A stretch of DNA of 64,000 nucleotides, taken from the NCBI GenBank assembly GCA_023136775.1, contig JAGLQO010000005.1:8198-72197 (forward strand), in the 5' to 3' direction. This document shows positions 30,080 to 61,132 of the stretch, in pieces. The stretch is from Candidatus Pacearchaeota archaeon (lineage in GTDB: Archaea; Nanobdellota; Nanobdellia; Pacearchaeales; GW2011-AR1). The notes under the pieces are model-generated. The model was not told where the DNA came from, did not search any database, and worked only from the letters and a program-made list of their open reading frames with translations. Numbering within the stretch: position 1 is the first letter of the stretch; the number at the start of each line of letters is the position of its first letter. The translations under genes were made by a program, and so were the position numbers.

Positions 30080-30180
30080 AATCCGTGAATGGGCAAGCCC
30101 ATCCGTGCAAATCCGTGAGCTATTAAAATAACCAAAAACTCCCAAAGCAAAAAATCCGTGTAATCCGCGAGCAAAAAATT
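30080..30180 (+). repeat. R2 module (AATCCGTGAA-hairpin tgggcaagccca-TCCGTGCAAATCCGTGAGC ... AATCCGCGAGCAAAA)
   Basis: Near-identical to 59048-59150. Confidence 0.65.
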
Positions 30181-30197
30181 AGCCCAATTCCCAAACT

Positions 30198-31781
30198 TTA
30201 AATCGCAAACTTCTTCCCAGAATTAGTCATCTCATTACTCTTCCACTCCTTCCGAGAAGCCCTACCCTTAGCCCTCATAGCTTTTCGCAAAGTATAATTA
30301 ATCGGATTCTTCATCCCAGGCTCAGGCGGAGAAGTAATCCCAAACTCCTTGTAAATCGGCTTATCATAATTAGGCGGCAACCGCTTATTCTTCAAAGCCC
30401 ACATAATTTGCGCCCGAATATAACCCTCCTTAATCGGCTGATAATTTTTCTTATTCCATTCCCTAATCCTCTCCTCAATATAATCCTGCGGAAATTCCAA
30501 ACTAGTAAAAAAAGAAAGCAACAACCCAAGCGCCCTCTTTCGACCATCAGTCGGAATCCCTTTAAGCAACTTTTTAATAATCGGCGGAAACATATCGTCA
30601 GTAATCGCAAGACCCGCGACATCAATAGACCCACCCTCATATTTCCGAGGCATTTCCTTCGGAGCTTCTTCATAATATTTTTCAATAGAATGAAGCAAAA
30701 GATTCTCAGCCTCATTTGGCTCCACCTTAGGCATAAAATCCCGAACCTTAACAATTTTTATAGGTTCAGCATCACTAGGTTTAAAATTTTCAATCTCATC
30801 TTTACGAAGAGGAATCGAAGCGAACGCAGTTTTTTCATGAAGCGAATAAGGAGCTCTAAACAAATGACGAGAAGCCACCAAAACAAAATCAACAGAATCC
30901 TCTTGAGATTTGATAGTTTGCTCTTCTTTAAATTGCATTTTTGATTTTTTTATTTCCAAACCAACAGTCGAAATTTTACACTTTTTACAAAAATCAGTTT
31001 TTCTCTCACTCACCCTTTCCATCTTTGCATTACAGCTTGGACAAATCATAGTAGACTTCTTTTTTATCGGGCTTTCAATTTCTGTTTTGCATTTAATGTC
31101 TGGACATTTATATTTATAGAATATTTTTTCATCAATTGATTCTTGACATTTTGGACAAACTTTTTCTATTGTCAATTCTCCAACCTCAATTAATTTTTCA
31201 CGACTAGACATCCCCAAAATCTCAGAATTCATAGGATCTTTAATTTCATCAAACAAATATTTGGCAATATACCGAGCCCATTCAGGAAAATGATCTTTTG
31301 TTAATTTCCCCCTAACCTCAATTGGAAACGCCGCAAAAGGAACAATTAAATGAAATCCTTTTGACCCACTAAATTTTATTCCATAATTTTTAACCCCATG
31401 TTTCTCCAAAGTCTCAAGCAAAAGCCGAAGAGCAATTTTCCCATAATCAAGATAAGGCGAATCAATATCAATCAATAAATCCCACCCAGCCTTAATTTCA
31501 TTATATTGTGCAGGCGTCATATTCGTATCAATATCCATCGGATTCTTCCAAATCTCCTCACTGCAATGAAATGAAGTCGCACCAGTCCGAGCTATACTTA
31601 ACACATCGGAAGGATAATCAAACGTGTCAGGTCTCTTAGAAAAATACTTATTATTAAAATTAGCAACAGTTTCCCTGCCTTTACAAAACTCAAACATAGC
31701 AGCCTGAACATCTTTCCGAGCATAATGCGAAAGCGCCGCAATCTGCACTTTACTCATCGGCTCAGTCTGATAATTCCCCAT
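30198..31781 (-). CDS. priS: DNA primase small subunit PriS (AEP) with inserted zinc ribbons and a ~150-aa C-terminal extension
   Basis: LLIDIDSPYLDY and IKFSGSKGFHLIVPF (AEP motifs I and II). Several CxxC pairs. Extension with GIPTDGRKRALGLLLSFF. Confidence 0.65.
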   Translation of the reverse strand: MGNYQTEPMSKVQIAALSHYARKDVQAAMFEFCKGRETVANFNNKYFSKRPDTFDYPSDVLSIARTGATSFHCSEEIWKNPMDIDTNMTPAQYNEIKAGWDLLIDIDSPYLDYGKIALRLLLETLEKHGVKNYGIKFSGSKGFHLIVPFAAFPIEVRGKLTKDHFPEWARYIAKYLFDEIKDPMNSEILGMSSREKLIEVGELTIEKVCPKCQESIDEKIFYKYKCPDIKCKTEIESPIKKKSTMICPSCNAKMERVSERKTDFCKKCKISTVGLEIKKSKMQFKEEQTIKSQEDSVDFVLVASRHLFRAPYSLHEKTAFASIPLRKDEIENFKPSDAEPIKIVKVRDFMPKVEPNEAENLLLHSIEKYYEEAPKEMPRKYEGGSIDVAGLAITDDMFPPIIKKLLKGIPTDGRKRALGLLLSFFTSLEFPQDYIEERIREWNKKNYQPIKEGYIRAQIMWALKNKRLPPNYDKPIYKEFGITSPPEPGMKNPINYTLRKAMRAKGRASRKEWKSNEMTNSGKKFAI

Positions 31782-31864
31782 ACAATTATATAGGGTTTTG
31801 TTTAATAAAGAGTTTGCGTTTTAACCATAATAATCCTTATAAATAGAATACGACTTTTCATTAT

Positions 31865-32587
31865 ATGATATTAAAGCTAGACGACCCAAAATTAATGAGC
31901 GACGCTATAGCTATCGTTTCTGAAATTGTTTCTGAAGTAAGAATAAAACTTTTACCTGACGGAATGAGCATCGTGGCAGTAGACCCAGCAAATGTTGCAC
32001 TAGTAATTTTCAAACTACCAAAAGAATCTTTCTCAGAATATGACGCAGGAAGTGAAGTTTGGGGAGTAAATCTAGACGATCTAAAAAAGATTTTAAAAAG
32101 AGCAGGAGCTTCAAGTAGCATTGTTCTAGAAGAATGCGAAGGGAAATTAAAAATAACAATTTTCGATAAAATCAAAAGAACATTTAATCTTTCACTAATC
32201 GAAGTTTCTTCCGAGGATAAAGACATCCCAGAATTAAACTTCGCAACCAGAATAGAAATGAACTCAGTTGATTTCGCCCAAGCAATCGAAGACACAAATG
32301 TAGTAGCAGACTCTTGCGCATTAATAAAAACAGGAGATGTTTTTTCGGTTGAAGGATCAGGAAATTTAAATTCAGCTAAAGCAGAATTTTCAGGAGAAGA
32401 CTTAGAAATGTTTGGAATCGGAAGATCAAAATATTCATTAGAATATATGATGAAATTTATCAAAGCATTAAAGATTTCTTCAAGAGTCGTAGTAAATTTC
32501 TCCGACGATTATCCACTAAGACTAGATTTTCCAGGCGAAAAAATGGGAATAGGTTTCGTTCTAGCTCCAAGAGTAGAAAACGATTAA
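31865..32587 (+). CDS. pcn: DNA polymerase sliding clamp PCNA
   Basis: 240 aa with MILKLDDPKLMSDAIAIVSEIVSEVRIKLLPDGMSIVAVDPANVALV, typical of archaeal PCNA. Confidence 0.8.
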   Translation: MILKLDDPKLMSDAIAIVSEIVSEVRIKLLPDGMSIVAVDPANVALVIFKLPKESFSEYDAGSEVWGVNLDDLKKILKRAGASSSIVLEECEGKLKITIFDKIKRTFNLSLIEVSSEDKDIPELNFATRIEMNSVDFAQAIEDTNVVADSCALIKTGDVFSVEGSGNLNSAKAEFSGEDLEMFGIGRSKYSLEYMMKFIKALKISSRVVVNFSDDYPLRLDFPGEKMGIGFVLAPRVEND

Positions 32588-32648
32588 ATTAGTTTTGATT
32601 TTTCAATTACAACCATAATTTTAAATAAATTGAAAGATATATTATAAA

Positions 32649-33692
32649 ATGACAAGAGAATTAACAATAAAAGATGAAGTGACCGATTTTTTACTTTATA
32701 ATTCACCAGATGGGAAAATTAAAGTAGATGTATTTTTGCACAATGAAGATGTTTGGCTTAATCAGAAGAATATGTCTGAACTTTTTGGAGTGGGTATCCC
32801 CGCAATTTCCAAGCATTTAGAAAATATATATACAGAGCGAGAACTGAATAAGGATTCAACTATTTCCATTTTGGAAATAGTTCAAAGGGAGGGGTTGAGA
32901 GATGTAAGGAGAGAACAGTTATTCTATAATCTTGACGCTATAATCTCAGTGGGATATCGTGTCAATTCTTCAAAGGCAACTCAATTCAGGATATGGTCAA
33001 CCAAGATTTTAAAAGAATATATTATCAAAGGATTTGCTCTTGATGATGAGCGACTAAAAAACGGAAAATATTTCGGCAAAGATTATTTTAAAGAACTTCT
33101 TGAGAGAGTTAGGTCAATTAGGGCAAGCGAAAGAAGGATTTATCAACAGATTACTGATATTTTTGCAGAATGCAGTATTGACTACGATAAGGATTCAAAT
33201 ACAACAAAGGAGTTTTATTCTACAGTTCAGAATAAATTCCATTACGCAATATCGGGACAAACAGCAGCAGAAATAATTTACAACAAAGCGGATTCTAATA
33301 AAAGGAGTATGGGGCTAGTTGCCTAGAAGAATTCCCCGGAAGGCAAAGTATTAAAATCAGATACAATAGTCGCCAAAAATTATCTTTCTGAAAATAAAAT
33401 TAAAAGATTAGAAAGAGTAATTTTTAGCTTCTTTGACTATCTTGAAAATTTAATTGAGAATAGGACAACTATGAAAATGAAAGATCTATCAGAAAGTGTA
33501 AATAAATTTTTAGATTTTAATGAATATAAAATATTGGAAAATAAAGGAGAGATATCCTTTAATGATGCAAAAACAAAAGCCTTCATAGAATATGATTTAT
33601 TTAACAAGACTCAAAAGTTTACTTCTGATTTTGACAAGCTAATAAAAGAACAAAACTTAATTCAATCTTCACACTTAAGAAACGATTAGTCA
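32649..33692 (+). pseudogene. RhuM-family virulence-associated protein interrupted by a single in-frame TAG (33324-33326) at a conserved Trp position
   Basis: The two ORFs 32649-33326 and 33471-33689 are in the same frame with no other stop. Sequence across the stop reads MGLVA*KNSPEGKVLKSD where RhuM homologues have a Trp (recalled). Confidence 0.55.
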
Positions 33693-33832: not shown

Positions 33833-33925
33833 AATTCGTGAGAAGTCCTGAGTTAATCCGTGGATAAAATTGTTTTTCTTCCCCTGCTTTAAATCCACTG
33901 AATCCTTATAATCCGCGAGCAAAAT
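33833..33925 (+). repeat. R2 module, degenerate copy
   Basis: aattcgtgag...taatccgtgg...aaatccactgaatccttataatccgcgagcaaaa. Confidence 0.5.
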
Positions 33926-33939
33926 TGTTTCCAATCTTA

Positions 33940-46836: not shown

Positions 46837-47324
46837 AATATAAAAAAGCACAACAAACAATGAGTATGCCATTTGGTATGATATTCGCAATTTTTCTAAT
46901 TATAGTTTTTGTAGTTTTTGCATTTATGGCGGTCGGTGGATTTTTAGATATTGGGAAAAGTGCAGATGTTGGAATGTTCTATGACGAATTACAAGAAGAA
47001 GTAAATGACGCTATGCGTGGACAATCAAGTGAATCCACTTTTAGAATAAATTTACCAAAAAAGATTAAGCAAGTTTGTTTTGCTAATCTGTCAGCAACAA
47101 TTACAAACCCAGGTTCAGAGTACGATGCAATTAGAAATTATGAAGTTTATGAAGCCAATACATTTTTGCTTCCACCAGAATTTGCGTCAAATATGCAATG
47201 GAAAATGATTGACCATATTGATGTAGCAAAAATAACAGCTACAAAAAATCCCTATTGTGTAAATGTCAAAGACGACCTAAAAATAAAGAAGAGTTTTTAT
47301 GATAGAAAAGTTACAATAGCATAG
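46833..47324 (+). CDS. type IV pilin-like protein (class III signal, KKA|QQ)
   Basis: MKYKKA|QQTMSMPFGMIFAIFLIIVFVVFAF. Confidence 0.5.
   Translation: MKYKKAQQTMSMPFGMIFAIFLIIVFVVFAFMAVGGFLDIGKSADVGMFYDELQEEVNDAMRGQSSESTFRINLPKKIKQVCFANLSATITNPGSEYDAIRNYEVYEANTFLLPPEFASNMQWKMIDHIDVAKITATKNPYCVNVKDDLKIKKSFYDRKVTIA
47216..47324 (+). repeat. direct repeat copy 1 (3' end of pilin gene 46833-47324)
   Basis: About 90% identical to 47981-48090. Confidence 0.7.
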
Positions 47325-47361
47325 GAGATTAATTTTTATAAATTAGGAAGGGAACAATTTT

Positions 47362-47502
47362 GCTCTCAGGACTTCTAGAGATTGTTTGGATTAAGACAGG
47401 GGCAGGAAATTGAGATATAAAAAGACAATTAACATGAATATTAGATATTATAATTAAGCATATTTGCATTGAATCTTCTAAATCTATTAAAGTCCTGAGA
47501 GC
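47362..47502. mobile_element. MITE-like element bounded by 12-bp inverted repeats gctctcaggact / agtcctgagagc
   Basis: IRs at 47362-47373 and 47491-47502. The same 12-mer recurs at 56397 and as agtcctgag at 33847, both at other insertion junctions. Confidence 0.35.
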
Positions 47503-47556
47503 TGTTTGTCTTGAGGAATTAGTTAATTATTTAAATTCCAATTTATTAAATAATAT

Positions 47557-47757
47557 ATGGATTTTAATATAATAATTGAAAAAGGAGAAGATGGGTATTT
47601 ATTATCTGAAGTAATTGAGCTTCCTGGTTGTAGAACTCAAGCTAAAGATATGAATGAACTTCTTAAAAGAACAAAAGAGGTTATTACTCTTTATTTGCAA
47701 GTAGAGGAAATGTCAACAAGAAACAGTTTTTTAGGAGTACAAAAAATAGCAGTTTAA
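47557..47757 (+). CDS. hicB: HicB-family antitoxin
   Basis: EDGYLLSEVIELPGCRTQAKDMNELLKRTKEVI. Confidence 0.65.
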   Translation: MDFNIIIEKGEDGYLLSEVIELPGCRTQAKDMNELLKRTKEVITLYLQVEEMSTRNSFLGVQKIAV

Positions 47758-47758
47758 T

Positions 47759-47986
47759 ATGCAAAAATTACCTCAGTTAACTGCCAATCAATTTATCAAA
47801 ATTTTATTTAAATTAGGTTTCAAAGCTATAAGGCAATCTGGAAGTCATGTATTCTTAAGGCATGAAGATGGTAGAACGACAGTAATCCCAAATCATCCTG
47901 GAGAGAAATTGGATAGGGGACTATTAAATAAAATATTAAAAAAGGATGTACAAATTTCTAGAGATGAACTTTTAGAATTAATTTAG
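47759..47986 (+). CDS. hicA: HicA-family mRNA interferase toxin
   Basis: GFKAIRQSGSHVFLRHEDGRTTVIPNHPGEKLDRGLL. Confidence 0.65.
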   Translation: MQKLPQLTANQFIKILFKLGFKAIRQSGSHVFLRHEDGRTTVIPNHPGEKLDRGLLNKILKKDVQISRDELLELI

Positions 47987-48090
47987 ATATAGCAAAAATA
48001 ACAGCTACAAAAAATCCCTATTGTGTAAATGTTAAAGACGACCTAAAAATAAAGAAGGGTTTTCATAATAGAAAAGTTACAATAGAATAA
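47981..48090 (+). repeat. direct repeat copy 2 (orphan duplicate of the pilin gene 3' end, including a stop)
   Basis: atttagatatagcaaaaataacagctacaaaaaatccctattgtgtaaatgttaaagacgacctaaaaataaagaag... Confidence 0.7.
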
Positions 48091-48135
48091 TATAAGAAAT
48101 TTAACCGCTTCCTTTAAAAAAACTATTTACATTAT

Positions 48136-50441: not shown

Positions 50442-50468
50442 TTTATTTTATAAATTCCAAGACAATTT

Positions 50469-50583
50469 TAGCTCACGGATTTATAGCCGTATTATCATTA
50501 ATTTATATAATTGCTTTGGAAAGTTTGGTTATTTTTTTAGCTCACGGATCCACACGGATGTCTTCGACATTCACGGATTTTTT
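50469..50583 (-). repeat. R2 modules, inverse orientation (ttagctcacggatccacacggatgtcttcgacattcacggattt)
   Basis: Reverse complement is aaatccgtgaa-tgtcgaagaca-tccgtgtggatccgtgagctaa. Confidence 0.6.
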
Positions 50584-50973
50584 TAGCTCATTATTATATA
50601 TTTTACGCTTAACCTCAGGCTGTTTTCCATAATTTAAAAGTAATCCCACTTCTTTATCCGTTGAAGTTAAATAATTTAGTAATTGATTTATATTTTGGTC
50701 CAAAAGTTCCCTTATAGCTTTTATCTCAATTATTATTACATCTTCTATAATAAAATCGGCAATATAATCACCGATGATATTCCCCTCATAATAAACTTTT
50801 ATAGGATATTGATTTTCATATTTTAAATCCATTTTGTTAAATTCAATTATCATAGCTTTCTCATATACTTTTTCTAAAAATCCATAACCAAGAGTATTGT
50901 AAACCTTATAAAATATCTTTATTACTTTATCAGTAATTTCCTCATGTTTCATATTTTCTATCATTTTATTCAC
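50542..50973 (-). CDS. GxxExxY family protein (PD-(D/E)xK-like)
   Basis: GYGFLEKVYEKA contains G-x-x-E-x-x-Y. About 140 aa as is typical. Confidence 0.55.
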   Translation of the reverse strand: MNKMIENMKHEEITDKVIKIFYKVYNTLGYGFLEKVYEKAMIIEFNKMDLKYENQYPIKVYYEGNIIGDYIADFIIEDVIIIEIKAIRELLDQNINQLLNYLTSTDKEVGLLLNYGKQPEVKRKIYNNELKKSVNVEDIRVDP

Positions 50974-51004
50974 TCAAGTTTTGCCTTGGAAGTTTAGTTG
51001 TATT

Positions 51005-51232
51005 TATTGCTCACGGATTTGCACAGATACTCATCGAGTATTCACGGATTTCTGTTTTTGAGAGTGTTTTCTCATTTTTGAATATGTTTTTAAGCCAGTG
51101 CCTTGAATCCGTGAACGCGATAGCGTCCGTGTAAATCCGTGAGCCATTTTGCATTGATTATATTTTTCCATATTTTTAATCTATCTGTCCCCTGTCTTGA
51201 ATCCCATAAATCCCCAGAATCCGCGAGCCAAT
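51005..51232. repeat. R2 modules: inverse partial (51005-51052) and direct full copy (51100-51232, hairpin cgc-gata-gcg)
   Basis: ttgctcacggattt...ttcacggattt; then cttgaatccgtgaacgcgatagcgtccgtgtaaatccgtgagcca...cttgaatcc...atccgcgagccaa. Confidence 0.6.
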
Positions 51233-51473
51233 TTGCTTTCCTGCATTGAATCTTCCCAATCCCCGAACCAAGTTGCATCCCCCGACGCTGATTAACCATT
51301 AACCCAAATCCCTCGTCGACAAATCTTAATAGTACTACCATTTCTTTATATATCCGGTAAGTCAACCCAGATATATAAAGATTGTGTTTTTGTATATTAA
51401 TAATTTTTTATTAATTCCTCGTCGATAATAATAAAGTCATAAAAAATCAGCGTCGAAGAACGACGCAACAAGT

Positions 51474-51504
51474 CCCGTCACCCGTCACCCGTCACCCGTC
51501 ACCC
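51474..51504. repeat. heptanucleotide microsatellite (cccgtca)x4
   Basis: Seen directly in the long leader of the S-layer-like gene. Confidence 0.7.
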
Positions 51505-51894: not shown

Positions 51895-54288
51895 ATGAAA
51901 AAAATATTTAGAAAAGCTATAACAGTTTTAGGAAGTGCTGCTTTAATTGGTGCTACTGTAGGTGCGGCTGCTGCTGCTGCTTACCCTGCTCAATTTACAG
52001 CAAGTAACACAGTTATCGTTTACGGATCCGACTCTGGAGCCGCTGATAACATTGCTACTACAGCCCTAAATGCTGATTTATTATCTTTAGCTGCTGGTTC
52101 TACAACTACAACAACTGTTGAAGGTGGAGAAGTTTTTTCTTTAGGTAAAGATTCTGACGAGTTTGAATTTGGTTACAATTTATCTAGTGTTTTCACAAGC
52201 TTAGATGATGGTGAAATGGAAAGTTTCTTAGCTGATGGAGAATATGACGATGGAGTTATTGATTCTGAATTTTCTCAAGAGATTACTTTAGGTACTCAGG
52301 CATTAAGTTTATTCGCTGATACTGATTACGACGACGATAAGACTCCAACAATTGGATTCCATTTCGATGATACTGAAGTTTTATCTTACGAGATGACTTT
52401 GGATGATTCTGATGAAGTTTATGTAAACATGATAGATACTGAAATCCCATTAATGGGAAGAGAGTATTATGTTCTGGATGCAACAGCTGACGAGGTAACT
52501 CTATTGGATTCTGCTGAAAAGGTAGTTGTTACTGAAGGAGAAACAATAACTGTTGATGGTAAAACAATTTCTATATCTGTTGCTGCTGAAACATATGTAA
52601 GGTTTGTAGTTAATGGAGAAATGACTGATAAGTTACACGATTCTGGTACTGATTACGACTTGTATCAAGAATTAGATGATGGTTCTTATATAGTAGTATC
52701 TTCAAATGATTACAATGCTAAAGATAGTGGAATTAGTAGTGCTGAAATTTCTATTGGTAAAGGTAAGTTAACTTTATCTAATGATGGTGGAGAAGTTGAA
52801 ATAAACGATGAAACCGTTACTGGATTAACATCTTACGTATATTCTACTGGAACTACTCCAGTTAATGCTGTAGGCACAGAAGTAATCAAGTCTATTAAAT
52901 TGACTTGGACTACTGATGATGAAGAATTTTTAGTTGAAGGAGGAGCTATGGTTATGCCAGGCTTTGAAACAATCAAGGTTCTATTTGGTGGAATGAACTT
53001 TCCAGAAGACTCTGAAAAGATATCAATTGACAATGGAGAAACTGTTACATTAAACATGGAAAATTTCGATGTTGATTTAATGTATGCTACTACTGAAGCA
53101 AATGGTGTTCAAGGTGACGATGGTAATTTATTACACATTGATGCAACTCCGAGTTCCACAAAAACATATTTCCTAAAAGATGGAGATAGATTCTTGGCTA
53201 CTGATTTAGATGAAACTTTAAGTGAGGTTGAACAACTTTACTATGAAGTTACTACATTGAGGAATGATTCTAACGGATTTGACTTAGTGCTAAATGATTT
53301 AACAGATGCTGATAAAGACATACCATTTGATGATGATGAAGCTGACGAAACTGATACCTCTCGAGGTGACGTAGAGGTTAAGCTAAATTTAGTTTATGAA
53401 GATGGTGTTAATGTTACTGATGCTGATGCCGCATTAATTGATGCAGCAGGTTTATCTACCGCTCTATTGACTAGTTATCCTAGTGATAACTCTACATTAG
53501 TAGAGATTGCAAAGGTTACTGTTACTCAAGACGATAGTATTGATTTACATTTCGACAAGGTAGTTTCTGATACTGGTATGATTGTAGAGATCCCTGTAGC
53601 TGCTGATGTAGCAGATAACGACGATCTTTTAATCTTCTACGAAGCTAAAGATGATGGTGATTTAGAAACAACATTTTCATCTGCTACTGCTGATATCTAT
53701 GCCGATTTAGATTGGGATACTTCTGATGAATATGTATATGCAAATGAGAATTCTACTGCTATTACTTTCAAGGAAGAATCTGATAACAATTACATAGGTT
53801 ATGTTGAATCTGATTTAACATCTATGGTTAGTTATGATACAGACGCACACTCTTACGAAATAACATATTTCGGAGAAGAGGTTGTTGCTGACGTTTCAAT
53901 TGCATCTGCTGATGCTGTACTTTCTACTTCTACAGAATCTGGAAACTTAATTGTTTTAGATACTGATGCTGATAAGCTCGTTGGTAAAAACTTGATTGTT
54001 GTTGGTGGTTCTGCTATCAACCGTGTTGCTGCTGATTTACTTAGTTTAAATTACCCATCTTATGGTGCTGATTTCACTGAGAAGACTGGTATTGCTGACG
54101 GACAAGCTCTAATTGAAGTTTTCCCTTACAGTGGGAATACTGCTATATTAGTTGCTGGTTACACGGCTGCTGACACTGCAAAGGCTACAACTTACTTACT
54201 TCACGAATCCGAAGATTTCGATTTGGTTGAAGGAGCTAAGTTAAAAGTTACATCTGCTACTGAAGCTACTGTTGTTACTACTGCTTAA
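51895..54288 (+). CDS. S-layer-like acidic, Thr/Asp-rich secreted protein
   Basis: Signal peptide ...GAAAAAA|YPAQ. 797 aa with no Cys. GGAGG SD 8 nt upstream. Strong hairpin terminator downstream. Confidence 0.5.
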   Translation: MKKIFRKAITVLGSAALIGATVGAAAAAAYPAQFTASNTVIVYGSDSGAADNIATTALNADLLSLAAGSTTTTTVEGGEVFSLGKDSDEFEFGYNLSSVFTSLDDGEMESFLADGEYDDGVIDSEFSQEITLGTQALSLFADTDYDDDKTPTIGFHFDDTEVLSYEMTLDDSDEVYVNMIDTEIPLMGREYYVLDATADEVTLLDSAEKVVVTEGETITVDGKTISISVAAETYVRFVVNGEMTDKLHDSGTDYDLYQELDDGSYIVVSSNDYNAKDSGISSAEISIGKGKLTLSNDGGEVEINDETVTGLTSYVYSTGTTPVNAVGTEVIKSIKLTWTTDDEEFLVEGGAMVMPGFETIKVLFGGMNFPEDSEKISIDNGETVTLNMENFDVDLMYATTEANGVQGDDGNLLHIDATPSSTKTYFLKDGDRFLATDLDETLSEVEQLYYEVTTLRNDSNGFDLVLNDLTDADKDIPFDDDEADETDTSRGDVEVKLNLVYEDGVNVTDADAALIDAAGLSTALLTSYPSDNSTLVEIAKVTVTQDDSIDLHFDKVVSDTGMIVEIPVAADVADNDDLLIFYEAKDDGDLETTFSSATADIYADLDWDTSDEYVYANENSTAITFKEESDNNYIGYVESDLTSMVSYDTDAHSYEITYFGEEVVADVSIASADAVLSTSTESGNLIVLDTDADKLVGKNLIVVGGSAINRVAADLLSLNYPSYGADFTEKTGIADGQALIEVFPYSGNTAILVAGYTAADTAKATTYLLHESEDFDLVEGAKLKVTSATEATVVTTA

Positions 54289-54650
54289 ATCTTAAGTTAA
54301 AAACAAATTTTTTATTTTTTTATTTTTACTTTTGATTCGCCCTTCGGGGCGAATCAATATCTATTCTTGATTAATTTCGAGAAGGATTTTCCTTTCTTTT
54401 GCTTATGTCGAGAAACTAAATTTTTATCTAAACTCCAAGGCAATTTTAGCCACGGATTACTCAAGACTTTAACGGATTCAAGACAAAAGCAGAAAGACAA
54501 ATTGGCTCACGGATTACACGGACGTCTTCGACGTTCACAGATTCAAGACAATAACTTGGATAACAATTTTTATTTAATCTACCAGCTAGTACCTTAATCC
54601 GTGAATACCGAAGGTATCCGTGAAATCCGTGAGCAAATTGTATTCCTGCC
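54088..54650 (+). repeat. direct repeat copy 1 (S-layer gene 3' end, terminator and downstream, carrying an extra inverse R2 module)
   Basis: Matches 56044-56510. Downstream 200 bp near-identical, coding part diverged. Confidence 0.7.
54334..54355 (+). terminator. hairpin gattcgccc-ttcg-gggcgaatc (9-bp perfect stem) after T-rich run
   Basis: Seen directly, 46 nt after the S-layer gene stop. Duplicated at 56282. Confidence 0.5.
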
Positions 54651-54671: not shown

Positions 54672-55973
54672 CTAACCCCCTTTTACAATTTTCCAAGACC
54701 CTTCCTTCCTTCCCCCAACACGTTTCAAATAGCCATCTTTCTTTAAGTTATCAAGATGATATTTAACCCCATCTGCCGAAATATTGAGAACTTTAGCCAA
54801 CTCATTTCTCGTAATTTTAGAATTATTTAGGACTAATGAAAGAATCTTTTGGGTAGTCTTTTGGGTAGGAGCTGGGAAGTAGTTCTTACGCCTGAATGTT
54901 GTGATAAATATTTCTGCAACTTCTTTAAAATTAGCTGTTGGTTCTTCCGATAAAATTAAACTTATACCTCTTCCCCATTTTTCAACAAAATGTACATCAT
55001 GAAATAGATTTGCAATTATTTCATTTCTTCTTTTAGAAACCTTTTCCTTTCTAATTTGTTTAATTGTAAGTCCTCCATACAAACTTCCCGGATTTCTAAT
55101 TTCTAATCTATCTTTGAAAATAGCTATATTAACAGAATCATCGTCGTAATAATTTCTATGACAAAAAGCATTAATGATCGCCTCTCTAAAGGCATCTTTA
55201 TCTATTTCAGGGATATCAACCCTATACATTCCCTCAATTTTCATACCTATATGAATATTTTTCAAAATATATTCTTCTGCTTTTTCAATTAATTCAAATA
55301 AATCCCCTTCAAATTCTTGTCGATCAATAATCATTGATGTTTCAGTGGTTCCAAATACAGCACACCTTAACTTTGCATTCAAAAATCTTTTTTGGGGATT
55401 TTCCCCAAAGAGAATAATCGCAGCGTTAAGTAACTTCTTATTTTTTACTAGTCCTAATTTATTAAGAGAACTTTCGACAGATTCATATTCTTTACCGGAT
55501 TTTTTCAAAAACCACTTCAATCTCTTAATACTTATATCTTCTAACGTTGCATCTTCACAAATTTCTGTATCCCATCTTAATTTATCCTTATTCTTTTCTA
55601 AAATTATTTTTTCAAGTTCTTTGGCAGAAATCAATTTATCCTCGTCGGCAACCCGCATATAAGCCCGACCATTTGCATAATATGGAATATTGCCTCCCTG
55701 AAATTCTACCAAAATACATTTCCTCCCCTCTACCTCTTCTTCACGAATTTTTGGAAAAATCTTTGGCTCGATATTAGAAGAAATTTTTTGAGAAATATCT
55801 CTCAAAGTTTTTTCATTGATACTCTGTCCGATAACTTTACCATCAGAATTAATCCCAAAATAAATTTCTCCTTTTTGATGTTTGTTTAAAATACTCGAAA
55901 TTGAAATTATAGCCTCCTTTAATTCAGATGTAGATTTTTTGAATTCCAGCGTTTCGCTTTCTTTTTTATCCAT
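54672..55973 (-). CDS. AlbA_2 (divergent AAA/Schlafen-like DNA-binding) + HATPase_c_4 + C-terminal wHTH protein
   Basis: N-terminal ETLEFKKS...EIYFGINSDGKVIG. Middle AINAFCHRNYYDD. C-terminal wHTH ITRNELAKVLNISADGVKYHLDNLKKDGYLKR. Confidence 0.55.
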   Translation of the reverse strand: MDKKESETLEFKKSTSELKEAIISISSILNKHQKGEIYFGINSDGKVIGQSINEKTLRDISQKISSNIEPKIFPKIREEEVEGRKCILVEFQGGNIPYYANGRAYMRVADEDKLISAKELEKIILEKNKDKLRWDTEICEDATLEDISIKRLKWFLKKSGKEYESVESSLNKLGLVKNKKLLNAAIILFGENPQKRFLNAKLRCAVFGTTETSMIIDRQEFEGDLFELIEKAEEYILKNIHIGMKIEGMYRVDIPEIDKDAFREAIINAFCHRNYYDDDSVNIAIFKDRLEIRNPGSLYGGLTIKQIRKEKVSKRRNEIIANLFHDVHFVEKWGRGISLILSEEPTANFKEVAEIFITTFRRKNYFPAPTQKTTQKILSLVLNNSKITRNELAKVLNISADGVKYHLDNLKKDGYLKRVGGRKEGSWKIVKGG

Positions 55974-56041
55974 ATAATCGCCAAGTATCCTAATCTTTTA
56001 AATCTATTTTATGCAATGTAGCGAAGCTTTTACTTCTACCA

Positions 56042-56236
56042 TTGGTGTTGCTGACGGAGAATTCTCGAATCCAATCTTTCGATAGATCTGGAAAGACTGC
56101 TCTATTAGTTGCTGGTTACAGTGCAGCCGATACAACTAAAGCCGCTACTTATTTACTAAACGAAGACGTTGATACAACTGTCGGAGTTAAGGTAAAAGGT
56201 ACATCTGCTACTGAAGCTACTGTTGTAACTGCTTAG
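56042..56236 (+). pseudogene. orphan C-terminal fragment of an S-layer-like gene (second copy of the direct repeat)
   Basis: TALLVAGYSAADTTKAATYLLNED...GTSATEATVVTA parallels the C-terminus of 51895-54288. No upstream gene body. Confidence 0.55.
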
Positions 56237-56281
56237 ATCTTAAGTTAAAAAACAAATTTTTATTTTTTTATTTTTACTTTT

Positions 56282-56303
56282 GATTCGCCCTTCGGGGCGA
56301 ATC
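56282..56303 (+). terminator. second copy of gattcgcccttcggggcgaatc hairpin
   Basis: Seen directly. Confidence 0.45.
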
Positions 56304-56479
56304 AATATCTATTCTTGATTAATTTCGAGAAGAATTTTATTTTCTTTTGCCTATGTCGAGAGACTAAGTTTTTATCTAAATTCCTAAAACAAATTAGCTC
56401 TCAGGACTTTTGGGGATTTGAAGGATTCAAGGCAATAAATTGAATAATAATTTTTATTTAATCTACTAGCTAGTGTCTT

Positions 56480-56506
56480 AAATCCGTGAGAATCCGTGAG
56501 CAATTT
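56480..56506 (+). repeat. R2 core dimer aaatccgtgagaatccgtgagcaattt
   Basis: Seen directly. Confidence 0.5.
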
Positions 56507-58131: not shown

Positions 58132-58893
58132 ATGGAAAAACAAATAGTAACTAAACTAACCAAAAACTTCGAAGAACACGTAAACAAAAAAGATAACCTT
58201 GAATTTTGGTTTGCAAGAGATTTACAAGTATTACTTGGCTATACTGAATGGAGAAATTTCCTAAAAGCTATAGAAAGAGCAAAAGAATCTTGCAAATCAG
58301 CAAATCAGCAAATCAGCTATCATTTTGCTGACGCCAACAAAACGATAGCTATGCCCAAAGGAGCAACTAAGGAGATTAAGGACTATATGCTCACAAGATA
58401 TGCTTGTTATCTTATAGCACAAAATGGTGACCCAAGAAAACAAGAAATAGCATTTGCTCAAAGTTACTTCGCAATCCAAACCAGAAAACAAGAATTAATC
58501 GAAGAGCGAATCGCACTAAAAGAACGTTTTGAAACTAGAGAAAAACTAATTAAATCAGAAACCGAATTATCAAAATTAATCTATGAACGCGGAGTAGACG
58601 AGATGGGCTTTGGAAGAATAAGAAGCAAAGGAGATAATGCATTATTTGGAGGAAACGACACCAAGCAAATAAAACAAAAATTCAACATTCCTAAAAGTAG
58701 ACCTTTGGCAGATTTTTTACCAACAGTAACCATAGCGGCAAAAAATTTTGCAACAGAAATTACAAATTTTAATGTTCAAAAAGATAACTTACAGGGAGAA
58801 AATAAAATCACCGATGAACACATAAGAAATAATACAAGAATAGGAGGAGTTTTGTTAGAAGACAATATTGTACCAGAAAAATTATCCCAGTAG
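58132..58893 (+). CDS. dinD: DNA damage-inducible protein D (DinD) family
   Basis: YACYLIAQNGDPRKQEIAFAQSYFAIQTRKQE closely matches the DinD core (recalled from E. coli DinD). Confidence 0.6.
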   Translation: MEKQIVTKLTKNFEEHVNKKDNLEFWFARDLQVLLGYTEWRNFLKAIERAKESCKSANQQISYHFADANKTIAMPKGATKEIKDYMLTRYACYLIAQNGDPRKQEIAFAQSYFAIQTRKQELIEERIALKERFETREKLIKSETELSKLIYERGVDEMGFGRIRSKGDNALFGGNDTKQIKQKFNIPKSRPLADFLPTVTIAAKNFATEITNFNVQKDNLQGENKITDEHIRNNTRIGGVLLEDNIVPEKLSQ

Positions 58894-58950
58894 AAGATAT
58901 AAAAAAATTAGAAAGAAAAATCAATAGGAAAAAAAGAATTCCCATCAAAC

Positions 58951-58998
58951 AAAGAAACAAAGAAACAAAGAAACAAAGAAACAAAGAAACAAAGAAAC
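58951..58998. repeat. octanucleotide microsatellite (aaagaaac)x6
   Basis: Seen directly. Confidence 0.7.
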
Positions 58999-59047
58999 TA
59001 GAATAAAAAATACAATTACCTATAAATCTCATCCAATACTCCCAAAT

Positions 59048-59150
59048 TCATTGTCCCCAATCCGTGAATGGGCAAGCCCATCCGTGCAATCCGTGAGCAA
59101 AAATTGCCTTCCTTCCCCTTGCCTCGAATCCTCTGAATCCATCAAATCCG
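59048..59150 (+). repeat. R2 module (hairpin tgggcaagccca)
   Basis: aatccgtgaatgggcaagcccatccgtgcaatccgtgagcaaaaa...ctgaatcc...aaatccgcgagcaaaa. Confidence 0.65.
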
Positions 59151-59205
59151 CGAGCAAAACAGCTTTCCCAACAAGTTATTTAAACTAACATCTCAATATT
59201 ATTAA

Positions 59206-59766
59206 ATGAGAAAAATCAAATCCAAAAATCAAATAGAAAAAAAACAAAAAAGAAATCAATTAATTCTAGGAATAATAATGGTCTTTTTATTAGTAGGCTC
59301 AGTCGCAGGATTTTCACTTATGAGTCAAGATAACGACGATTCCTCAAAAGTAGAAGAATACGGATTAGAGTTTTATAGAGAAAACGGAGTTTGGAAAACA
59401 CTAATCGGAGAAGAGGCCTTCGCTTTTCAAAATTTACCTTCAGAAGTTTCAAACATAAAAGTAGATACAAATATAACTCTAGGGCAATATTCAAACCAGC
59501 CAGTATACTTGGTAAATCCAAATCAAGGCATACAAGAAATATCAAACAACATAGGAAAATATATCCAAAGATTTAATGAAGCTTGTCTGCAAGGACAAAA
59601 TTGTACAAAAGATGTCCCAACAAAAGACTGCTCAAGTAACATAATCATATTCGAAGCAGGTAACGAAACAAAAGTTTATTCCAAACAAAACTGCGTGTAC
59701 ATCGTCGGTGATTCGATTAAAGCAGCTGACGCATTTTTATATAAAATTCTAGGTATCACACAATGA
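59206..59766 (+). CDS. N-terminally anchored secreted protein
   Basis: Basic N-terminus then TM LILGIIMVFLLVGSVAGFSLM. Confidence 0.4.
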   Translation: MRKIKSKNQIEKKQKRNQLILGIIMVFLLVGSVAGFSLMSQDNDDSSKVEEYGLEFYRENGVWKTLIGEEAFAFQNLPSEVSNIKVDTNITLGQYSNQPVYLVNPNQGIQEISNNIGKYIQRFNEACLQGQNCTKDVPTKDCSSNIIIFEAGNETKVYSKQNCVYIVGDSIKAADAFLYKILGITQ

Positions 59767-60485
59767 AAGTTGAAAAGTTAACTGAAGAAGAAAAGGAAGA
59801 AAAAATTCAAGAAGGTGAACTTCCAAAAAAGTCAGTCAGACAAAAAGAAAATAGACAATTGATTTGGTTCTTTGTAATTATAGGAATTGTTTTTATGTCA
59901 TTTTTGGGACCATATTTTTACATTCAAGATTCAAAGACTTTTGAATACGCACACATAGATTGGGCGATTGAAGATTACGAAAGTTTGCGAATTTATCACG
60001 GAAGATTCCCAGTTCTTACAAACCCGACAGTAACATTCAATACATATCTAAGAACAGATCCAAGAGAAAACAACATAGAAACTGTTGGAGAATTTGTTGA
60101 TTTCGACTCAAAAGCAATAATTTCAATGAGTCCAGAAGTAGATAGTTGCCGAGGAGAATTAAGTAGAGTAATGTTGGATTTAAGCAGTTTCTTAAAAGAA
60201 GGTCTTGGAGTAAGTGAAATAGTTGTAGGCTCAACCGTACAAGAATCAGCGACGAATTTAGACAGACCATACGCAACTTGTGATTCGGTTCAAGGAAAAA
60301 CTTTAGTAATTGTAGAATTAGGCGACGAGTCAAAAGTGGTCCAAAACGAAAATAATAAAAAATGTTACACAATTTATGCATCTAGTTGTGCGGACTTAAC
60401 GGGTGCAGAAAAGTTCATCGTAAAAACAGTAGACGATATAGAAACTATGCTAGACGAAGCTCGAGCAAAAAAGCAGGAGCAATAA
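59763..60485 (+). CDS. N-terminally anchored membrane protein
   Basis: KE-rich N-terminus, TM LIWFFVIIGIVFMSFLGPYFYI. Confidence 0.4.
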   Translation: MKVEKLTEEEKEEKIQEGELPKKSVRQKENRQLIWFFVIIGIVFMSFLGPYFYIQDSKTFEYAHIDWAIEDYESLRIYHGRFPVLTNPTVTFNTYLRTDPRENNIETVGEFVDFDSKAIISMSPEVDSCRGELSRVMLDLSSFLKEGLGVSEIVVGSTVQESATNLDRPYATCDSVQGKTLVIVELGDESKVVQNENNKKCYTIYASSCADLTGAEKFIVKTVDDIETMLDEARAKKQEQ

Positions 60486-60962
60486 ATGTCAGCTCAAATC
60501 TACCTTGCATATTTATTAACAATTCTTCCAGTTTTTGAACTTCGTGCAGGACTGCCTCTAGTCATTGAATACGCCCTAAAAAACAATCAGCAAATCTGGC
60601 CATACGTTTTGATAGTAATTATCCTAAATATCTTAGCAATATTTTTAGCATTTATGTTCTTGGATTTCTTGCATAATATATTAATGAACTTTAAATTCTA
60701 CAAAAAATTAATCAATAAAGTTCTAATCAAAGCTCAAAAAAAAGCCGCCAAGCTAGAAAAGAAAATGGATAAATGGGGCTACGTTGCATTAATGCTACTT
60801 GTCGCAGTTCCACTCCCAGGAACAGGAGCTTACACAGGAGCTTTAGTCTCATGGATTTTAGGATTAAATAGAAAAAATAGCTTAATCGCAATCGCAGCAG
60901 GAGTAATAATCGCAGGACTACTTGTACTTCTTATTACTCTCGGATTTGCTAGAGTTTTTTAA
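60486..60962 (+). CDS. small multidrug-export-like membrane protein (COG2426/PF06695)
   Basis: LPVFELRAGLPLVIEY and PLPGTGAYTGALVSWILG motifs. Confidence 0.55.
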   Translation: MSAQIYLAYLLTILPVFELRAGLPLVIEYALKNNQQIWPYVLIVIILNILAIFLAFMFLDFLHNILMNFKFYKKLINKVLIKAQKKAAKLEKKMDKWGYVALMLLVAVPLPGTGAYTGALVSWILGLNRKNSLIAIAAGVIIAGLLVLLITLGFARVF

Positions 60963-61067
60963 ATACATAAAATCAATTAGATGAAAAATTTCTACGCAAT
61001 AAAAATTCAAATCGCTCAATTAGAGAAGCTCTGCTTCTCGTATGCAATATAGTTCTTTCATGTCTTA

Positions 61068-61132
61068 AAATCCGTGAATGACGAAGTCATACGTGTAATC
61101 CGTGAGCAAATTGCTTTTTGTCTTGAATCCAA
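61068..61132 (+). repeat. R2 module (hairpin tgac-gaa-gtca)
   Basis: aatccgtgaatgacgaagtcatacgtgtaatccgtgagcaaattgc...cttgaatcc. Confidence 0.6.

Follow-up and report, generated by a model that had tools for sequence, protein, structure and literature searches.

R2 repeats in a Candidatus Pacearchaeota genome as probable end-arrays, gene-less copies and broken copies of a small selfish element carrying a GxxExxY nuclease gene

The window analysed here, a stretch of 64,000 nucleotides from a Candidatus Pacearchaeota MAG, contains 13 copies of a repeat, R2, between 30.0 and 61.2 kb (Table 1). A sequence-only reading had reported at least nine copies in both orientations, and all ten that it listed are present at the places and in the orientations given; a profile search of the window added three degenerate copies (M11, M12 and M13). 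The core architecture that had been proposed is borne out, with the order AATCCGTGAA, a hairpin, TCCGTG, NAA and TCCGTGAGC complete in eight copies, while the hairpin is missing from M8, and M2 is degenerate. In M1 (partially), M2, M5, M6 and M9, the first (A) array is followed by a second (B) array, AATCC...AATCCGCGAGC. ATCCGYG occurs 31 times in the window (3.99 expected), a count reached by none of 100 shuffles, and the 13-mer ATCCGTGAGCAAA occurs 14 times with up to two mismatches (1.3 expected). Similarity between copies is 60-89% and the number of sub-arrays varies from one to three; thus, many of the copies may be old.

All R2 copies are intergenic, in a window of which only 13.6% is intergenic. 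As had been noted for 0-29 kb, no copy is found in 1-29.7 kb. R2 is found in 9 of the 13 intergenic gaps of at least 100 nt that lie after 29.7 kb, compared to none of the 10 that precede this position (Fisher p = 0.0016, a figure that, like the binomial ones, assumes independence of neighbouring gaps or iterons, which does not fully apply). The description of the R2-containing half as accessory did not hold: primase, PCNA, the S-layer gene and a large pilus-like operon are also located there, with core genes returning past the window end. The copies are grouped within at most ~20 kb on either side of the single GxxExxY gene in the window.

Table 1. R2 copies, the GxxExxY gene and the GxxExxY unit (window positions).
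Feature	Position	Strand	Description
M1	30072..30175	+	Solo array: three iterons, mini-hairpin 30089-30102, type-I linker, then ATCCGTGTAATCCGCGAGC; lies 23 nt past the stop codon of the primase gene
M2	33833..33927	+	Degenerate first array AATTCGTGAG..GTCCTGAG..ATCCGTGG, then intact B array 33885-33927
M13(-)/M11(+)	47355..47520	.	Degenerate head-to-head pair (M13 47355-47398, M11 47464-47520), GTCCTGAGAGC variant, 65 nt apart, upstream of HicB
GxxExxY unit	50468-51235		Arrays at both ends in inverted layout (M3...M5)
M3	50468..50582	-	Array overlapping the 3' end (last 13 codons) of the GxxExxY gene; hairpin 50558-50570; GCTCACGGATCCACACGGA (50540-50558) forms an inverted repeat with M5 (19 nt, 89%)
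GxxExxY gene	50542..50973	-	PF13366 PDDEXK_3 (Pfam E = 2.6e-37); TIGR04256 (E = 8e-36)
M4	51006..51053	-	Internal array directly upstream of the GxxExxY start; hairpin 51027-51041; head-to-head pair with M5 (arms 22 nt, 86%)
M5	51099..51235	+	Outer A array 51099-51147 (hairpin 51115-51126) and B array 51193-51235; second terminal inverted repeat of the GxxExxY unit
M6	54441..54547	-	A array 54500-54547 (hairpin 54522-54534), B array 54441-54486; gene-less head-to-head pair with M7 (54441..54640), outward GCTCAC...GTGAGC ends, 52 nt between arms, arms 44 nt, 80%; single-strand fold of the pair z = -5.85
M7	54592-54640	+	Hairpin 54605-54617
M12	56379-56435	-	Degenerate; reduced head-to-head pair with M8 (56379..56504), upstream of a DUF4143 ATPase gene
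M8	56478-56504	+	Two iterons, no hairpin
M9	59056..59160	+	Solo A array (hairpin 59068-59081) and B array 59119-59160; between a Bro-N/DinD-like gene and the 59206 operon
M10	61065..61131	+	Solo A array (hairpin 61078-61090, middle iteron TACGTG) and start of a B array; adjoins a truncated copy of a different repeat family (61020-61064)

The GxxExxY gene is the sole protein-coding part of the element in the window. Residues G26, E29 and Y32 of the GxxExxY motif as well as D68, E78 and K80 are invariant in 18 homologues; because the catalytic D...ExK residues are invariant, the protein is, judging from its sequence, probably an active nuclease. A structure model (pLDDT 88) gave lambda-exonuclease-type nucleases and Cas4 (SSO0001) as the best, weak fold matches. 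An HVO_A0114-type winged-helix gene lies after M3 in the window and likewise in a sibling Pacearchaeota genome.

Four head-to-head pairs (M4/M5, M6/M7, M12/M8 and M13/M11) have outward-facing GCTCAC...GTGAGC ends, which are those of the full GxxExxY unit, and 46-65 nt between their arms. These pairs look MITE-like, while solo or truncated ends are represented by M1, M2, M9 and M10. No similarity exists between the interior of the full unit and the spacers in the gene-less pairs, which therefore lend no support to an origin by internal deletion. Among the explanations offered earlier, iteron-like arrays describe the R2 units correctly; a MITE points in the right direction for the head-to-head pairs, while the solo copies are unpaired and a target-site duplication was found neither at the pairs in the window nor at loci L032, L036, L050, L052 and L053, the flanks of the sole filled/empty pair of sites having diverged too far to decide the matter. 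As a consequence, a classical cut-and-paste transposon is not demonstrated.

The arrays accompany GxxExxY genes well beyond this genome. In 12 of 13 GxxExxY loci picked by protein similarity alone (31-79% identity), (A)TCCGYG iterons (TC[CT]G[TC]G-type) lie at most 130 nt from the gene; at the remaining locus, the iterons are phased AATCC. Loci with iterons include those of the sibling Pacearchaeota, another archaeon, Marinimicrobia, Bacteroidota, Fusobacteria, Treponema, Gemmatirosa and an IMG/VR contig, and TCCGYG is enriched 19-fold in the 150-nt flanks of five GxxExxY genes. In seven loci, the arrays form terminal inverted repeats of 15-30 nt around the gene, i.e. in B. finegoldii (30 nt, 90%), Sphingomonas (25 nt, 92%), Treponema (28 nt, 71%, with a 16-nt core of 88%), the IMG/VR contig (18 nt, 83%), Marinimicrobia (18 nt, 83%), the sibling Pacearchaeota (15 nt, 100%) and the window (19 nt, 89%). 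The orientation of arrays relative to the gene is inverted in most loci and direct in L040 and at the second gene of the sibling (L036). Iteron sequence drifts with protein divergence, from ATCCGTG down to ~40% identity to CCTCTGTG, CTTCGCG, ATCCGCG or AATCC beyond it, and units are found within operon spacers (fabD-fabG, radA-FAD and an Mbh/Mrp operon). Thus, the element is built alike in bacteria and archaea, and R2 is not a free-standing repeat family. The GxxExxY gene, previously seen as one neighbour of R2 among many, does adjoin R2, but it is also the gene to which the arrays belong across domains. An identical GxxExxY protein was not seen in two genomic contexts and, therefore, there is no evidence of recent movement.

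Filled and empty sites bear on whether the arrays arrived with the gene. The fabD-fabG spacer of S. parapaucimobilis is a filled site with a unit of roughly 437 bp, while that of S. paeninsulae is an empty site of 32 nt with neither gene nor arrays; therefore, the arrays came with the gene at this locus. This argues against the idea that the arrays are pre-existing dispersed palindromic repeats serving as a target or homing site for insertion of GxxExxY, with the head-to-head pairs as unoccupied targets, as does the tight bounding of the operon-spacer units by arrays. A homing endonuclease would have an empty allele with an intact site, and the Sphingomonas spacer has no iterons, although one such comparison, of species that have diverged, is weak evidence. 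Gene-less palindromic arrays are nonetheless common, with four pairs in the window and tight CACGGA...TCCGTG palindromes without a gene nearby in bacterial contigs L004/L010, L006, L007 and L016. In Gemmatirosa, the palindromic array is next to the GxxExxY gene and not around it, and PD-(D/E)XK homing endonucleases exist. Overall, we consider that the arrays are unlikely to be mere targets.

Based on these data, we suggest that R2 probably comprises the end-arrays, together with broken copies and copies without the gene, of a very small selfish element carrying the GxxExxY nuclease gene. In this model, the full-length element would be the inverted-repeat-bounded unit carrying the PD-(D/E)XK gene. 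Each of its ends consists of two or three (A)ATCCGYG iterons 9-10 nt, i.e. one helical turn, apart and has GAGC at the outer tip, and the arrays face one another across the gene. The head-to-head pairs would be the same two ends with 46-65 nt replacing it. From this layout, we infer that the GxxExxY protein binds the phased iterons at both ends and cuts or otherwise acts there; if so, the arrays would delimit the inserted unit. The gene-less copies would then either be mobilised in trans or be relics of gene loss.

R2 is also polymorphic between related genomes, being missing at three orthologous sites in close relatives. In relative L027, there is no R2 downstream of the primase gene (the M1 site), and ~165 nt including M2 are missing at the orthologous position after RhuM; in the sibling, the S-layer gene is followed by a terminator and then the ATPase gene without R2 (the M12/M8 site). 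At its GxxExxY locus, the sibling has R2 arrays in a simpler form. That orthologous promoters in close relatives lack R2 speaks against R2 representing operator or upstream sites of a cellular transcription factor, e.g. the neighbouring winged-helix proteins, that regulates adjacent genes. Such a function would fit direct repeats phased at one helical turn, which are typical of cooperative DNA binding, the location of M3, M4, M8, M9 and M11 14-110 nt upstream of a co-oriented start codon, the TATA-like A/T stretch that often follows the outer end, and the winged-helix gene after M3 in both the window and the sibling. However, M1, M6, M7 and M10 point into the 3' ends of convergent genes, and the same iterons accompany GxxExxY in unrelated bacteria with different neighbours. 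We therefore regard an operator function as rather improbable.

Eight R2 copies contain the mini-hairpin, a palindrome of 10-13 nt inserted between iterons 1 and 2, which pairs perfectly in each of them, with six different sequences. The hairpins described earlier (tgggc-aa-gccca twice, tgac-gaa-gtca, cgc-gata-gcg, tacc-gaa-ggta, tgtc-gaa-gaca and cgtc-gaa-gacg) are all correct, and M4 adds an eighth, tactc-gat-gagta. In a hand-made structural alignment, 42 of 42 cells are paired, with 12 two-sided changes and no one-sided change. In a comparison with shuffled controls, the percentage paired, the number of two-sided changed cells and the covariation score were each reached by 0 of 500 shuffles, while the counts of pairs and of pair types were unexceptional (38/500 and 171/500). 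Slid controls gave 14-38% pairing, and no stem accompanies the flanking words at the four other places in the window where they match by chance. The insert stretches the spacing of iterons 1 and 2 from ~10 to 18-21 nt, or roughly two helical turns, so that phasing is roughly kept. Among the loci compared, the hairpin is found only in the organism of the window, and the orthologous arrays of the sibling lack it. The earlier conclusion that compensatory changes imply selection on structure is a reasonable one, but it is not proven: template-switch correction of quasi-palindromes would likewise keep stems perfect without selection, and the sibling's arrays do without the hairpin.

It could also be argued that R2 acts as RNA, either through cleavage of the inverted-array stem in read-through transcripts, as in rRNA intervening sequences, or as the small-RNA family suggested by the sequence-only reading. 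The pairs fold into long stems (z = -5.9 and -7.0), but these scores reflect no more than the arms being inverted repeats, and solo arrays cannot form such a stem. There is a precedent in the Coxiella 23S intervening sequence (IVS), which is 428 nt long and has a terminal stem of 28 bp that RNase III cuts (PMC4990558), and in GxxExxY units within operons a processed stem could limit polarity. Rfam gave no match at gathering score in the whole window, and a single chance sub-threshold match in 47-62 kb, to a miRNA precursor (26.5 bits, with the threshold at 61). Neither promoters nor terminators occur at a fixed position, and the orientation of R2 relative to genes is inconsistent. Moreover, all stem changes are from one Watson-Crick pair to another without G-U intermediates, and CGAAG is a loop known best from DNA, where it forms an exceptionally stable mini-hairpin. 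An RNA function for R2 is, thus, very improbable, and the small-RNA proposal is not upheld.

R2 copies lie at several insertion junctions, and the sequence-only reading had raised the possibility that they are recombination sites used by the gene insertions, i.e. integron-like sites for RhuM, AlbA_2, HicAB and DinD cassettes. In line with this, the homology between the two copies of the duplicated S-layer 3' end stops exactly after TCCGTGAGCAA(A/T)TT, and the GxxExxY gene lies between the same-orientation arrays M4 and M3. However, duplicated host sequence, and not R2 as such, flanks the AlbA_2, HicAB and RhuM insertions, amounting to 122-430 nt for AlbA_2 and HicAB, an AlbA_2 homologue in L030 has a similar flanking duplication without R2, and RhuM in L027 has no adjacent R2. 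A Pfam scan of 30 window ORFs, which covered 1-14 kb, 26.6-34.4 kb and 50-63.8 kb, revealed no integrase or other recombinase, and R2 lacks the symmetry of attC-like R/L boxes. It is, therefore, extremely doubtful that R2 serves as a cassette recombination site, and the proposal in its original form finds no support.

An element with iteron end-arrays around a nuclease gene, as we favour here, shares features with several known systems. Like attC sites, R2 copies are imperfect inverted repeats beside accessory genes with structure more conserved than sequence; in contrast to attC, they have no R''/L''-L'/R' boxes with a GTTRRRY core, occur in mixed orientations and have conserved boxes that are direct rather than inverted repeats, and an IntI-type tyrosine recombinase domain was absent from the 30 ORFs scanned. 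Like bacterial MITEs and modular intergenic repeats, e.g. Correia elements and the pneumococcal BOX A-Bn-C elements, R2 is small, non-coding, intergenic and present in both orientations, with inverted ends, presence/absence between relatives and truncated and composite copies, and, in the manner of BOX elements, its number of sub-arrays varies (A, A+B). The four head-to-head pairs, but not M1, M2, M9 and M10, have terminal inverted repeats around a short non-coding unit. The longer partner with the same ends would be the GxxExxY unit, the architecture of which recurs in bacteria and the mobilising role of which is putative. By contrast to MITEs, no target-site duplication was found, the ends consist of phased iterons, and the presumed autonomous form encodes a nuclease of 125-140 aa and not a recognised transposase.

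The REP/REPIN sequences and their RAYT genes have a similar organisation: short intergenic repeats, each with a small hairpin, are dispersed as singlets and inverted doublets, and a single-copy nuclease-type gene is flanked by repeats that far outnumber it, a ratio that for R2 applies to the ~80 kb of the genome examined alone. The two differ in the fold of the partner, which is PD-(D/E)XK for R2 (PF13366/TIGR04256) and HUH/Y1 for RAYT, with no Y1_Tnp among the 30 ORFs scanned, and in the conserved part, which is the direct iterons in R2, where the hairpin sequence is free, and the palindrome itself in REPs. To our knowledge, RAYT genes do not form large paralogous families; GxxExxY genes elsewhere do.

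By analogy, the closest described counterpart of the GxxExxY element appears to be the 23S rRNA IVS element with its S23p/four-helix-bundle ORF (Coxiella, Leptospira, Salmonella). The IVS resides in helix 25 or 45 of 23S rRNA and is removed by RNase III, whereas R2/GxxExxY units occupy ordinary intergenic spacers; the window itself contains no rRNA, and every R2 copy is located between genes that encode proteins. The ORFs also differ (PD-(D/E)XK versus four-helix bundle), as does iteron spacing (9-10 nt versus 7). Nevertheless, both elements are ~430-500 bp and called selfish, and both have tandem repeats upstream of the ORF: in Coxiella, three tandem GACAGAT heptamers lie just upstream of it (PMC4990558) and, going by the published description only, are similar to the CACAGAT/CACGGAT iterons found upstream of GxxExxY. 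Terminal inverted repeats able to form a stem of 25-30 bp enclose a small ORF in both elements.

The repeat family R2 is confirmed: the window has 31 occurrences of ATCCGYG where 3.99 would be expected, and 14 of the 13-mer ATCCGTGAGCAAA (up to two mismatches allowed) where the expectation is 1.3. All ten copies named in the sequence-only reading are present at the positions and in the orientations it reported, and a profile of the second sub-array recovers three additional, degenerate copies. The first sub-array (A array) reads (c)TTGAATCCGTGAA, a hairpin, TCCGTG, NAA(A) and TCCGTGAGC; the second (B array), cTTGAATCC-N3-4-(A/G)AATCC-N4-5-AATCCGCGAGC, often follows the A array and a C/T-rich linker. 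Iteron variants include ATCCGCG and GTCCTGAGAGC. The start-to-start spacing of the iterons is 9-10 nt, as compared to 18-21 nt across the hairpin, and the hairpin thus adds approximately one helical turn. Eight copies form four head-to-head pairs of inverted copies (M4/M5, M6/M7, M12/M8 and M13/M11) with GCTCAC...GTGAGC tips facing outward and 46-65 nt between the arms.

All 13 copies are intergenic, in a window of which 13.6% is intergenic. Counting only gaps of 100 nt or more, R2 is present in 9 of 13 past 29.7 kb and in none of the 10 that precede it (Fisher p = 0.0016). The sub-array profile gave no match in the first 30 kb, in the 7.7 kb of contig sequence past the window end, or in three relatives identified by their primase (L027-L029). 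Thus, the proposed confinement to an accessory half holds in that no copy lies before 30 kb; however, the R2-bearing half is not merely accessory, as it includes primase, PCNA, the S-layer gene and a large pilus-like operon. Beyond the window end, the core genes FtsZ, Spt5 and L11 follow. The copies cluster within ~20 kb of a gene for a PD-(D/E)XK protein, GxxExxY (PF13366/TIGR04256).

To relate arrays and gene, 13 GxxExxY loci were picked by protein similarity alone (31-79% identity). They comprise the window, two sibling Pacearchaeota genes and another archaeon; MAGs of Marinimicrobia and Bacteroidales; plasmids or chromids of a Fusobacteria bacterium, Gemmatirosa, Treponema, Bacteroides finegoldii, Sphingomonas and Persicobacter; and a viral IMG/VR contig of 61% G+C, the one locus from an IMG/VR scan. 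A tblastn search of a phage collection with GxxExxY gave no match. TC[CT]G[TC]G-type iterons lie no more than 130 nt from the gene in 12 of the 13 loci, and the thirteenth has phased AATCC iterons, as in the B array of R2. TCCGYG is enriched 19-fold in the 150-nt flanks of five GxxExxY genes, an effect seen at every locus, with the reservation that neighbouring iterons are not independent. At seven loci the arrays are terminal inverted repeats around the gene, for instance TTCACCACAGAGGACGCAGAGGACACGGAG / CTCTGTGACCTCTGTGTCCTCTGTGGTGAA in B. finegoldii and TTCACGCGAAGGCGCGAGGACGCGA / TCGCGTCTTCGCGGCTTCGCGTGAA in Sphingomonas. The resulting units of ~440-620 bp sit in tight operon spacers (fabD-fabG, radA-FAD and an Mbh/Mrp operon). 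S. parapaucimobilis has a unit between fabD and fabG, where S. paeninsulae has a 32-nt spacer with neither gene nor arrays. This array-free empty site weakens the reading in which the arrays are homing targets rather than element ends, which we consider unlikely. Among the loci compared, we found no target-site duplication and no identical GxxExxY protein in two contexts.

The ATCCGTG iteron is constant down to ~40% protein identity, and the most distant proteins have other iterons. Such drift of iteron with protein is the pattern expected of co-evolution between a protein and its site, and could also follow from shared ancestry alone. The D...ExK catalytic residues are kept in 18 of 18 aligned homologues, and the best but weak fold matches of a confident structure model (pLDDT 88) are lambda-exonuclease-type and Cas4 nucleases. 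GxxExxY ORFs often run on into the downstream iteron array, giving variable C-terminal tails such as ..KKSVNVEDIRVDP in the window.

R2 is probably a local, expanded version of these end-arrays. M3 and M5 form an inverted repeat (19 nt, 89%) enclosing the window GxxExxY gene, and M4 is an internal array upstream of its start codon, as in the sibling. The four head-to-head pairs carry the unit ends without the gene and are, therefore, MITE-like, and the other copies would be solo or truncated ends. The GxxExxY protein is predicted to bind the phased iterons and to act at the ends, with transposition, homing-type copying and recombination between arrays as candidate modes of movement. On this reading, the window would hold a small selfish element that has inverted repeats at its ends, along with miniature derivatives of it, and the link to a large nuclease family is unexpectedly broad and apparently undescribed. 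More tentatively, it is possible that GxxExxY genes and phased-iteron inverted repeats constitute an undescribed class of mini mobile elements of bacteria, archaea and viral contigs, in which a PD-(D/E)XK nuclease of ~125 aa would recognise arrayed repeats of 7-9 nt and spread itself as well as gene-less array pairs, as a PD-(D/E)XK counterpart of the RAYT transposases and their REPIN repeats; the 23S rRNA intervening sequence (IVS) would then be a special case with other cargo. The sequence-only reading had offered a small-RNA family, a MITE, protein-bound iterons or recombination sites; its observation is confirmed and its interpretation partly supported.

Eight arrays contain a 10-13 nt palindrome that takes seven sequence forms, has an invariant A-T closing pair and is not derived from its flanks. 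MAFFT was unable to place the variable stems in common columns, and pairs were, therefore, counted in a hand-padded structural alignment. The earlier claim that this hairpin always pairs was borne out: 42 of 42 alignment cells are paired, with two-sided changes in 12 and one-sided changes in none. In 500 shuffles, the observed percentage paired, number of cells with two-sided change and covariation score were never attained; on the two measures based on numbers of pairs or of pair types, the alignment was unexceptional (38/500 and 171/500). Slid controls paired at 14-38%, and there was no stem at four chance matches to the hairpin-flanking words. In a descriptor search of 53 fetched loci, the hairpin-bearing module was found only in contigs of the window organism; the orthologous arrays of the sibling genome read AAATCCGTGAAATCCGTGA(A/G)C and have no hairpin. 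The perfect stems could result from selection on DNA or RNA structure, and could equally result from template-switch correction of quasi-palindromes. Because no stem has a G-U (G-T) pair and many are capped by CGAAG, a cap that we take to point to DNA, we lean toward a DNA-level feature. That R2 as a whole acts at the RNA level is improbable, because it has no Rfam match and shows no promoter or terminator geometry that is consistent between copies. A tRNA-like or att-site origin, C/D-box or K-turn RNA, archaeal ORB origin elements and hairpin-opening excision footprints were dropped on sequence grounds; ARAGORN found no tRNA, R2 has no box motifs and the iteron has no dyad.

A scan for a strict module pattern in genome, metagenome and viral contigs gave 17 single matches in unrelated, mostly high-GC bacteria and did not recover the window organism. 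Several (L002, L008 and L009) are simple tandem repeats. A Streptococcus suis contig (L001) has a tandem TCCGTGAAGTG iteron array ~280 nt from an ORF of 274 aa; if this putative plasmid rep gene is one, the array belongs to an unrelated iteron system that shares the hexamer by chance. Other matches are tight palindromic TCCGTG arrays that in hindsight fit the same class. Being selected by pattern, the matches prove nothing alone. A search of 1.84 billion representative proteins with a spurious ORF derived from R2 recovered the ORF itself and, beyond that, just three unrelated proteins, repetitive and eukaryote-like.

Coordinates of features in the window and in compared loci
Feature	Location	Remark
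GxxExxY gene	window 50542-50973 (-)	between M3 and M5
GxxExxY read-through into array	window 50542-50582; L047 1860-1911; L053 960-1017
Degenerate R2 copies	window 47355-47398 (-), 47464-47520 (+), 56379-56435 (-)	from sub-array profile
R2-derived spurious ORF	window 51093-51341 (-)
Iteron array of S. suis contig	L001 181-221
~200-nt family	window 7553-7747, 14340-14528, 27449-27587, 29157-29265, 62808-62977	intergenic
~200-nt family, partial	window 5113-5151, 30006-30044	30006-30044 adjoins M1
~200-nt family in a relative	L027 4010-4260	conserved there
78-nt family	window 4812-4889, 13970-14047, 62617-62694
78-nt family, partial	window 61020-61064	adjoins M10
Tandem 8-mer (AAACAAAG)n	window 58939-59009
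CGTCACC x4, tandem	window 51474-51503	660-nt non-coding region upstream of S-layer gene
AlbA_2/HATPase_c_4/wHTH gene	window 54672-55973	between S-layer-end duplicates
S-layer-end duplicates	window 54080-54640, 56030-56504	79-100% identity by segment
AlbA_2 allele indel	window 54845	12 nt, in frame
HicB/HicA pair	window 47557-47986	inside direct repeat
Direct repeat around HicB/HicA	window 47215-47336, 47981-48102	122 nt, 89% identical
Direct repeat around AlbA_2 homologue	L030 7700-7850, 9150-9190	~35 nt
RhuM ORFs	window 32649-33326, 33471-33689
Inverted block	window 9754-30197	M1 at junction
Genes with homologues after primase in L028/L029	window 9754-11598, 11653-12975

The window, from a Candidatus Pacearchaeota (DPANN) population, is matched by contig DAOWHN010000006.1 of MAG GCA_030641395.1, save two small indels, and also by several metagenome assemblies. 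In another NCBI record for Pacearchaeota, a contig of 85,993 bp encodes proteins identical to the window AlbA_2 and GxxExxY variants. The NCBI MAG contig and the window differ in the length of the tandem 8-mer by two units (16 nt), and the AlbA_2 alleles (433 and 437 aa) are separated by an in-frame indel. In L027 (primase 84% identical), a different repeat family lies downstream of the primase gene and the ~165 nt holding M2 after RhuM are missing; L028 and L029 (primase 68%) have compact spacers, no repeat families and no RhuM. In sibling Pacearchaeota from the same samples (L036-L039), the S-layer gene and its terminator hairpin are followed directly by the DUF4143 ATPase gene, with neither the R2 pair nor AlbA_2, and the order S-layer, inverted array, array, GxxExxY, array, HVO_A0114 is kept. 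Thus, R2 copies come and go on a short evolutionary scale, while the arrays around GxxExxY persist. If the arrays were operators for a host regulator, their phasing and some of their positions would fit; however, copies at convergent genes do not, R2 is missing at orthologous promoters and the arrays travel with GxxExxY across phyla, making this reading quite doubtful.

Other rearrangements and repeats share the region. Relative to primase-PCNA, a block with the ribosomal protein operon, SecY and an EMC3-like gene is inverted in the window as compared to L028 and L029. RhuM, inserted between PCNA and a small wHTH gene that adjoin directly in L028 and L029, is split in two ORFs and probably a pseudogene; it is also split in L027. 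A ~200-nt intergenic family (core CCTCAATATATCAGACCGTCTGCGAC..AGTCGGTAAG.GGTTTGGAA..AAATCCTGTGTGGATTT..TTTTTTCACCAGAAAAAAAGCCAAC, then TTTATA) has no Rfam match and often lies just upstream of core genes (the L3 operon, SecY and the EMC3-like gene). A 78-nt family, with the hairpin TTTAGAGAAGC-NNN-GCTTCTC followed by AAGTCTCCCTCATT.CGCT.CGCTACATTCACTC, precedes it by 120-300 nt in three places, and both families may belong to a single longer element. Two solo or truncated R2 copies, M1 and M10, adjoin truncated copies of these families.

AlbA_2 is surrounded by a duplication of the last ~190 nt of the S-layer gene, the terminator hairpin and the R2 pair; given the direct S-layer-ATPase order in the sibling, AlbA_2 is an insertion that arrived with a diverged target copy. 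The HicB/HicA toxin-antitoxin pair follows the same pattern, with a direct repeat of its upstream neighbour's 3' end on both sides. On an unrelated contig, L030, an AlbA_2 homologue with 72% identity lies inside a sugar-biosynthesis operon; the direct repeat that flanks it covers the junction of stop and start (..ttgaggtgcttaaatgaa(g/a)gtcttag..). In general, single-gene insertions of this kind seem to duplicate the junction entered. That R2 travels with AlbA_2 is ruled out by the contexts of its homologues in L030 and L031, which have no R2. It is also very improbable that R2 copies are integron-like recombination sites: a Pfam scan of 30 window ORFs, covering 1-14 kb, 26.6-34.4 kb and 50-63.8 kb, found no recombinase, and duplicated host sequence flanks both the AlbA_2 and the HicAB insertion, an arrangement that recurs in L030 without R2.

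GxxExxY is a large, widely transferred family, and linking it to a phased DNA motif provides the testable hypothesis that it binds or cleaves ATCCGTG arrays. The link could explain a class of intergenic repeats and spurious ORFs in many phyla and, in this DPANN genome, would account for intergenic spacers at 30-61 kb that exceed those of relatives in length and variability; the R2 arrays are likely substrates for rearrangements there. In a 2012 superfamily survey, PF13366 was listed with function "Unknown" and multiple transfers between Bacteria and Archaea (PMC3424549). The papers on GxxExxY consulted in the open-access literature, an incomplete set that leaves room for an earlier description, do not describe repeats flanking the gene.

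Several known repeat systems are functional analogues of R2. REP/REPIN-RAYT is one, but the partner gene of R2 lacks the HUH/Y1 fold; MITE-like modular repeats (BOX, Correia) are others, but for R2, unlike MITEs, no target-site duplication was found. As compared to integron attC sites, R2 lacks attC boxes, and no integrase was found among the scanned window ORFs. The closest described system is the 23S rRNA IVS. In Coxiella, the IVS is a selfish element of 428 nt whose terminal stem spans 28 bp; it has an ORF for S23p (a four-helix bundle), preceded by three GACAGAT heptamers in tandem (PMC4990558). R2, unlike the IVS, is not in rRNA. The link of GxxExxY to a phased motif suggests a common origin of its units and the long-unexplained rRNA intervening sequences.
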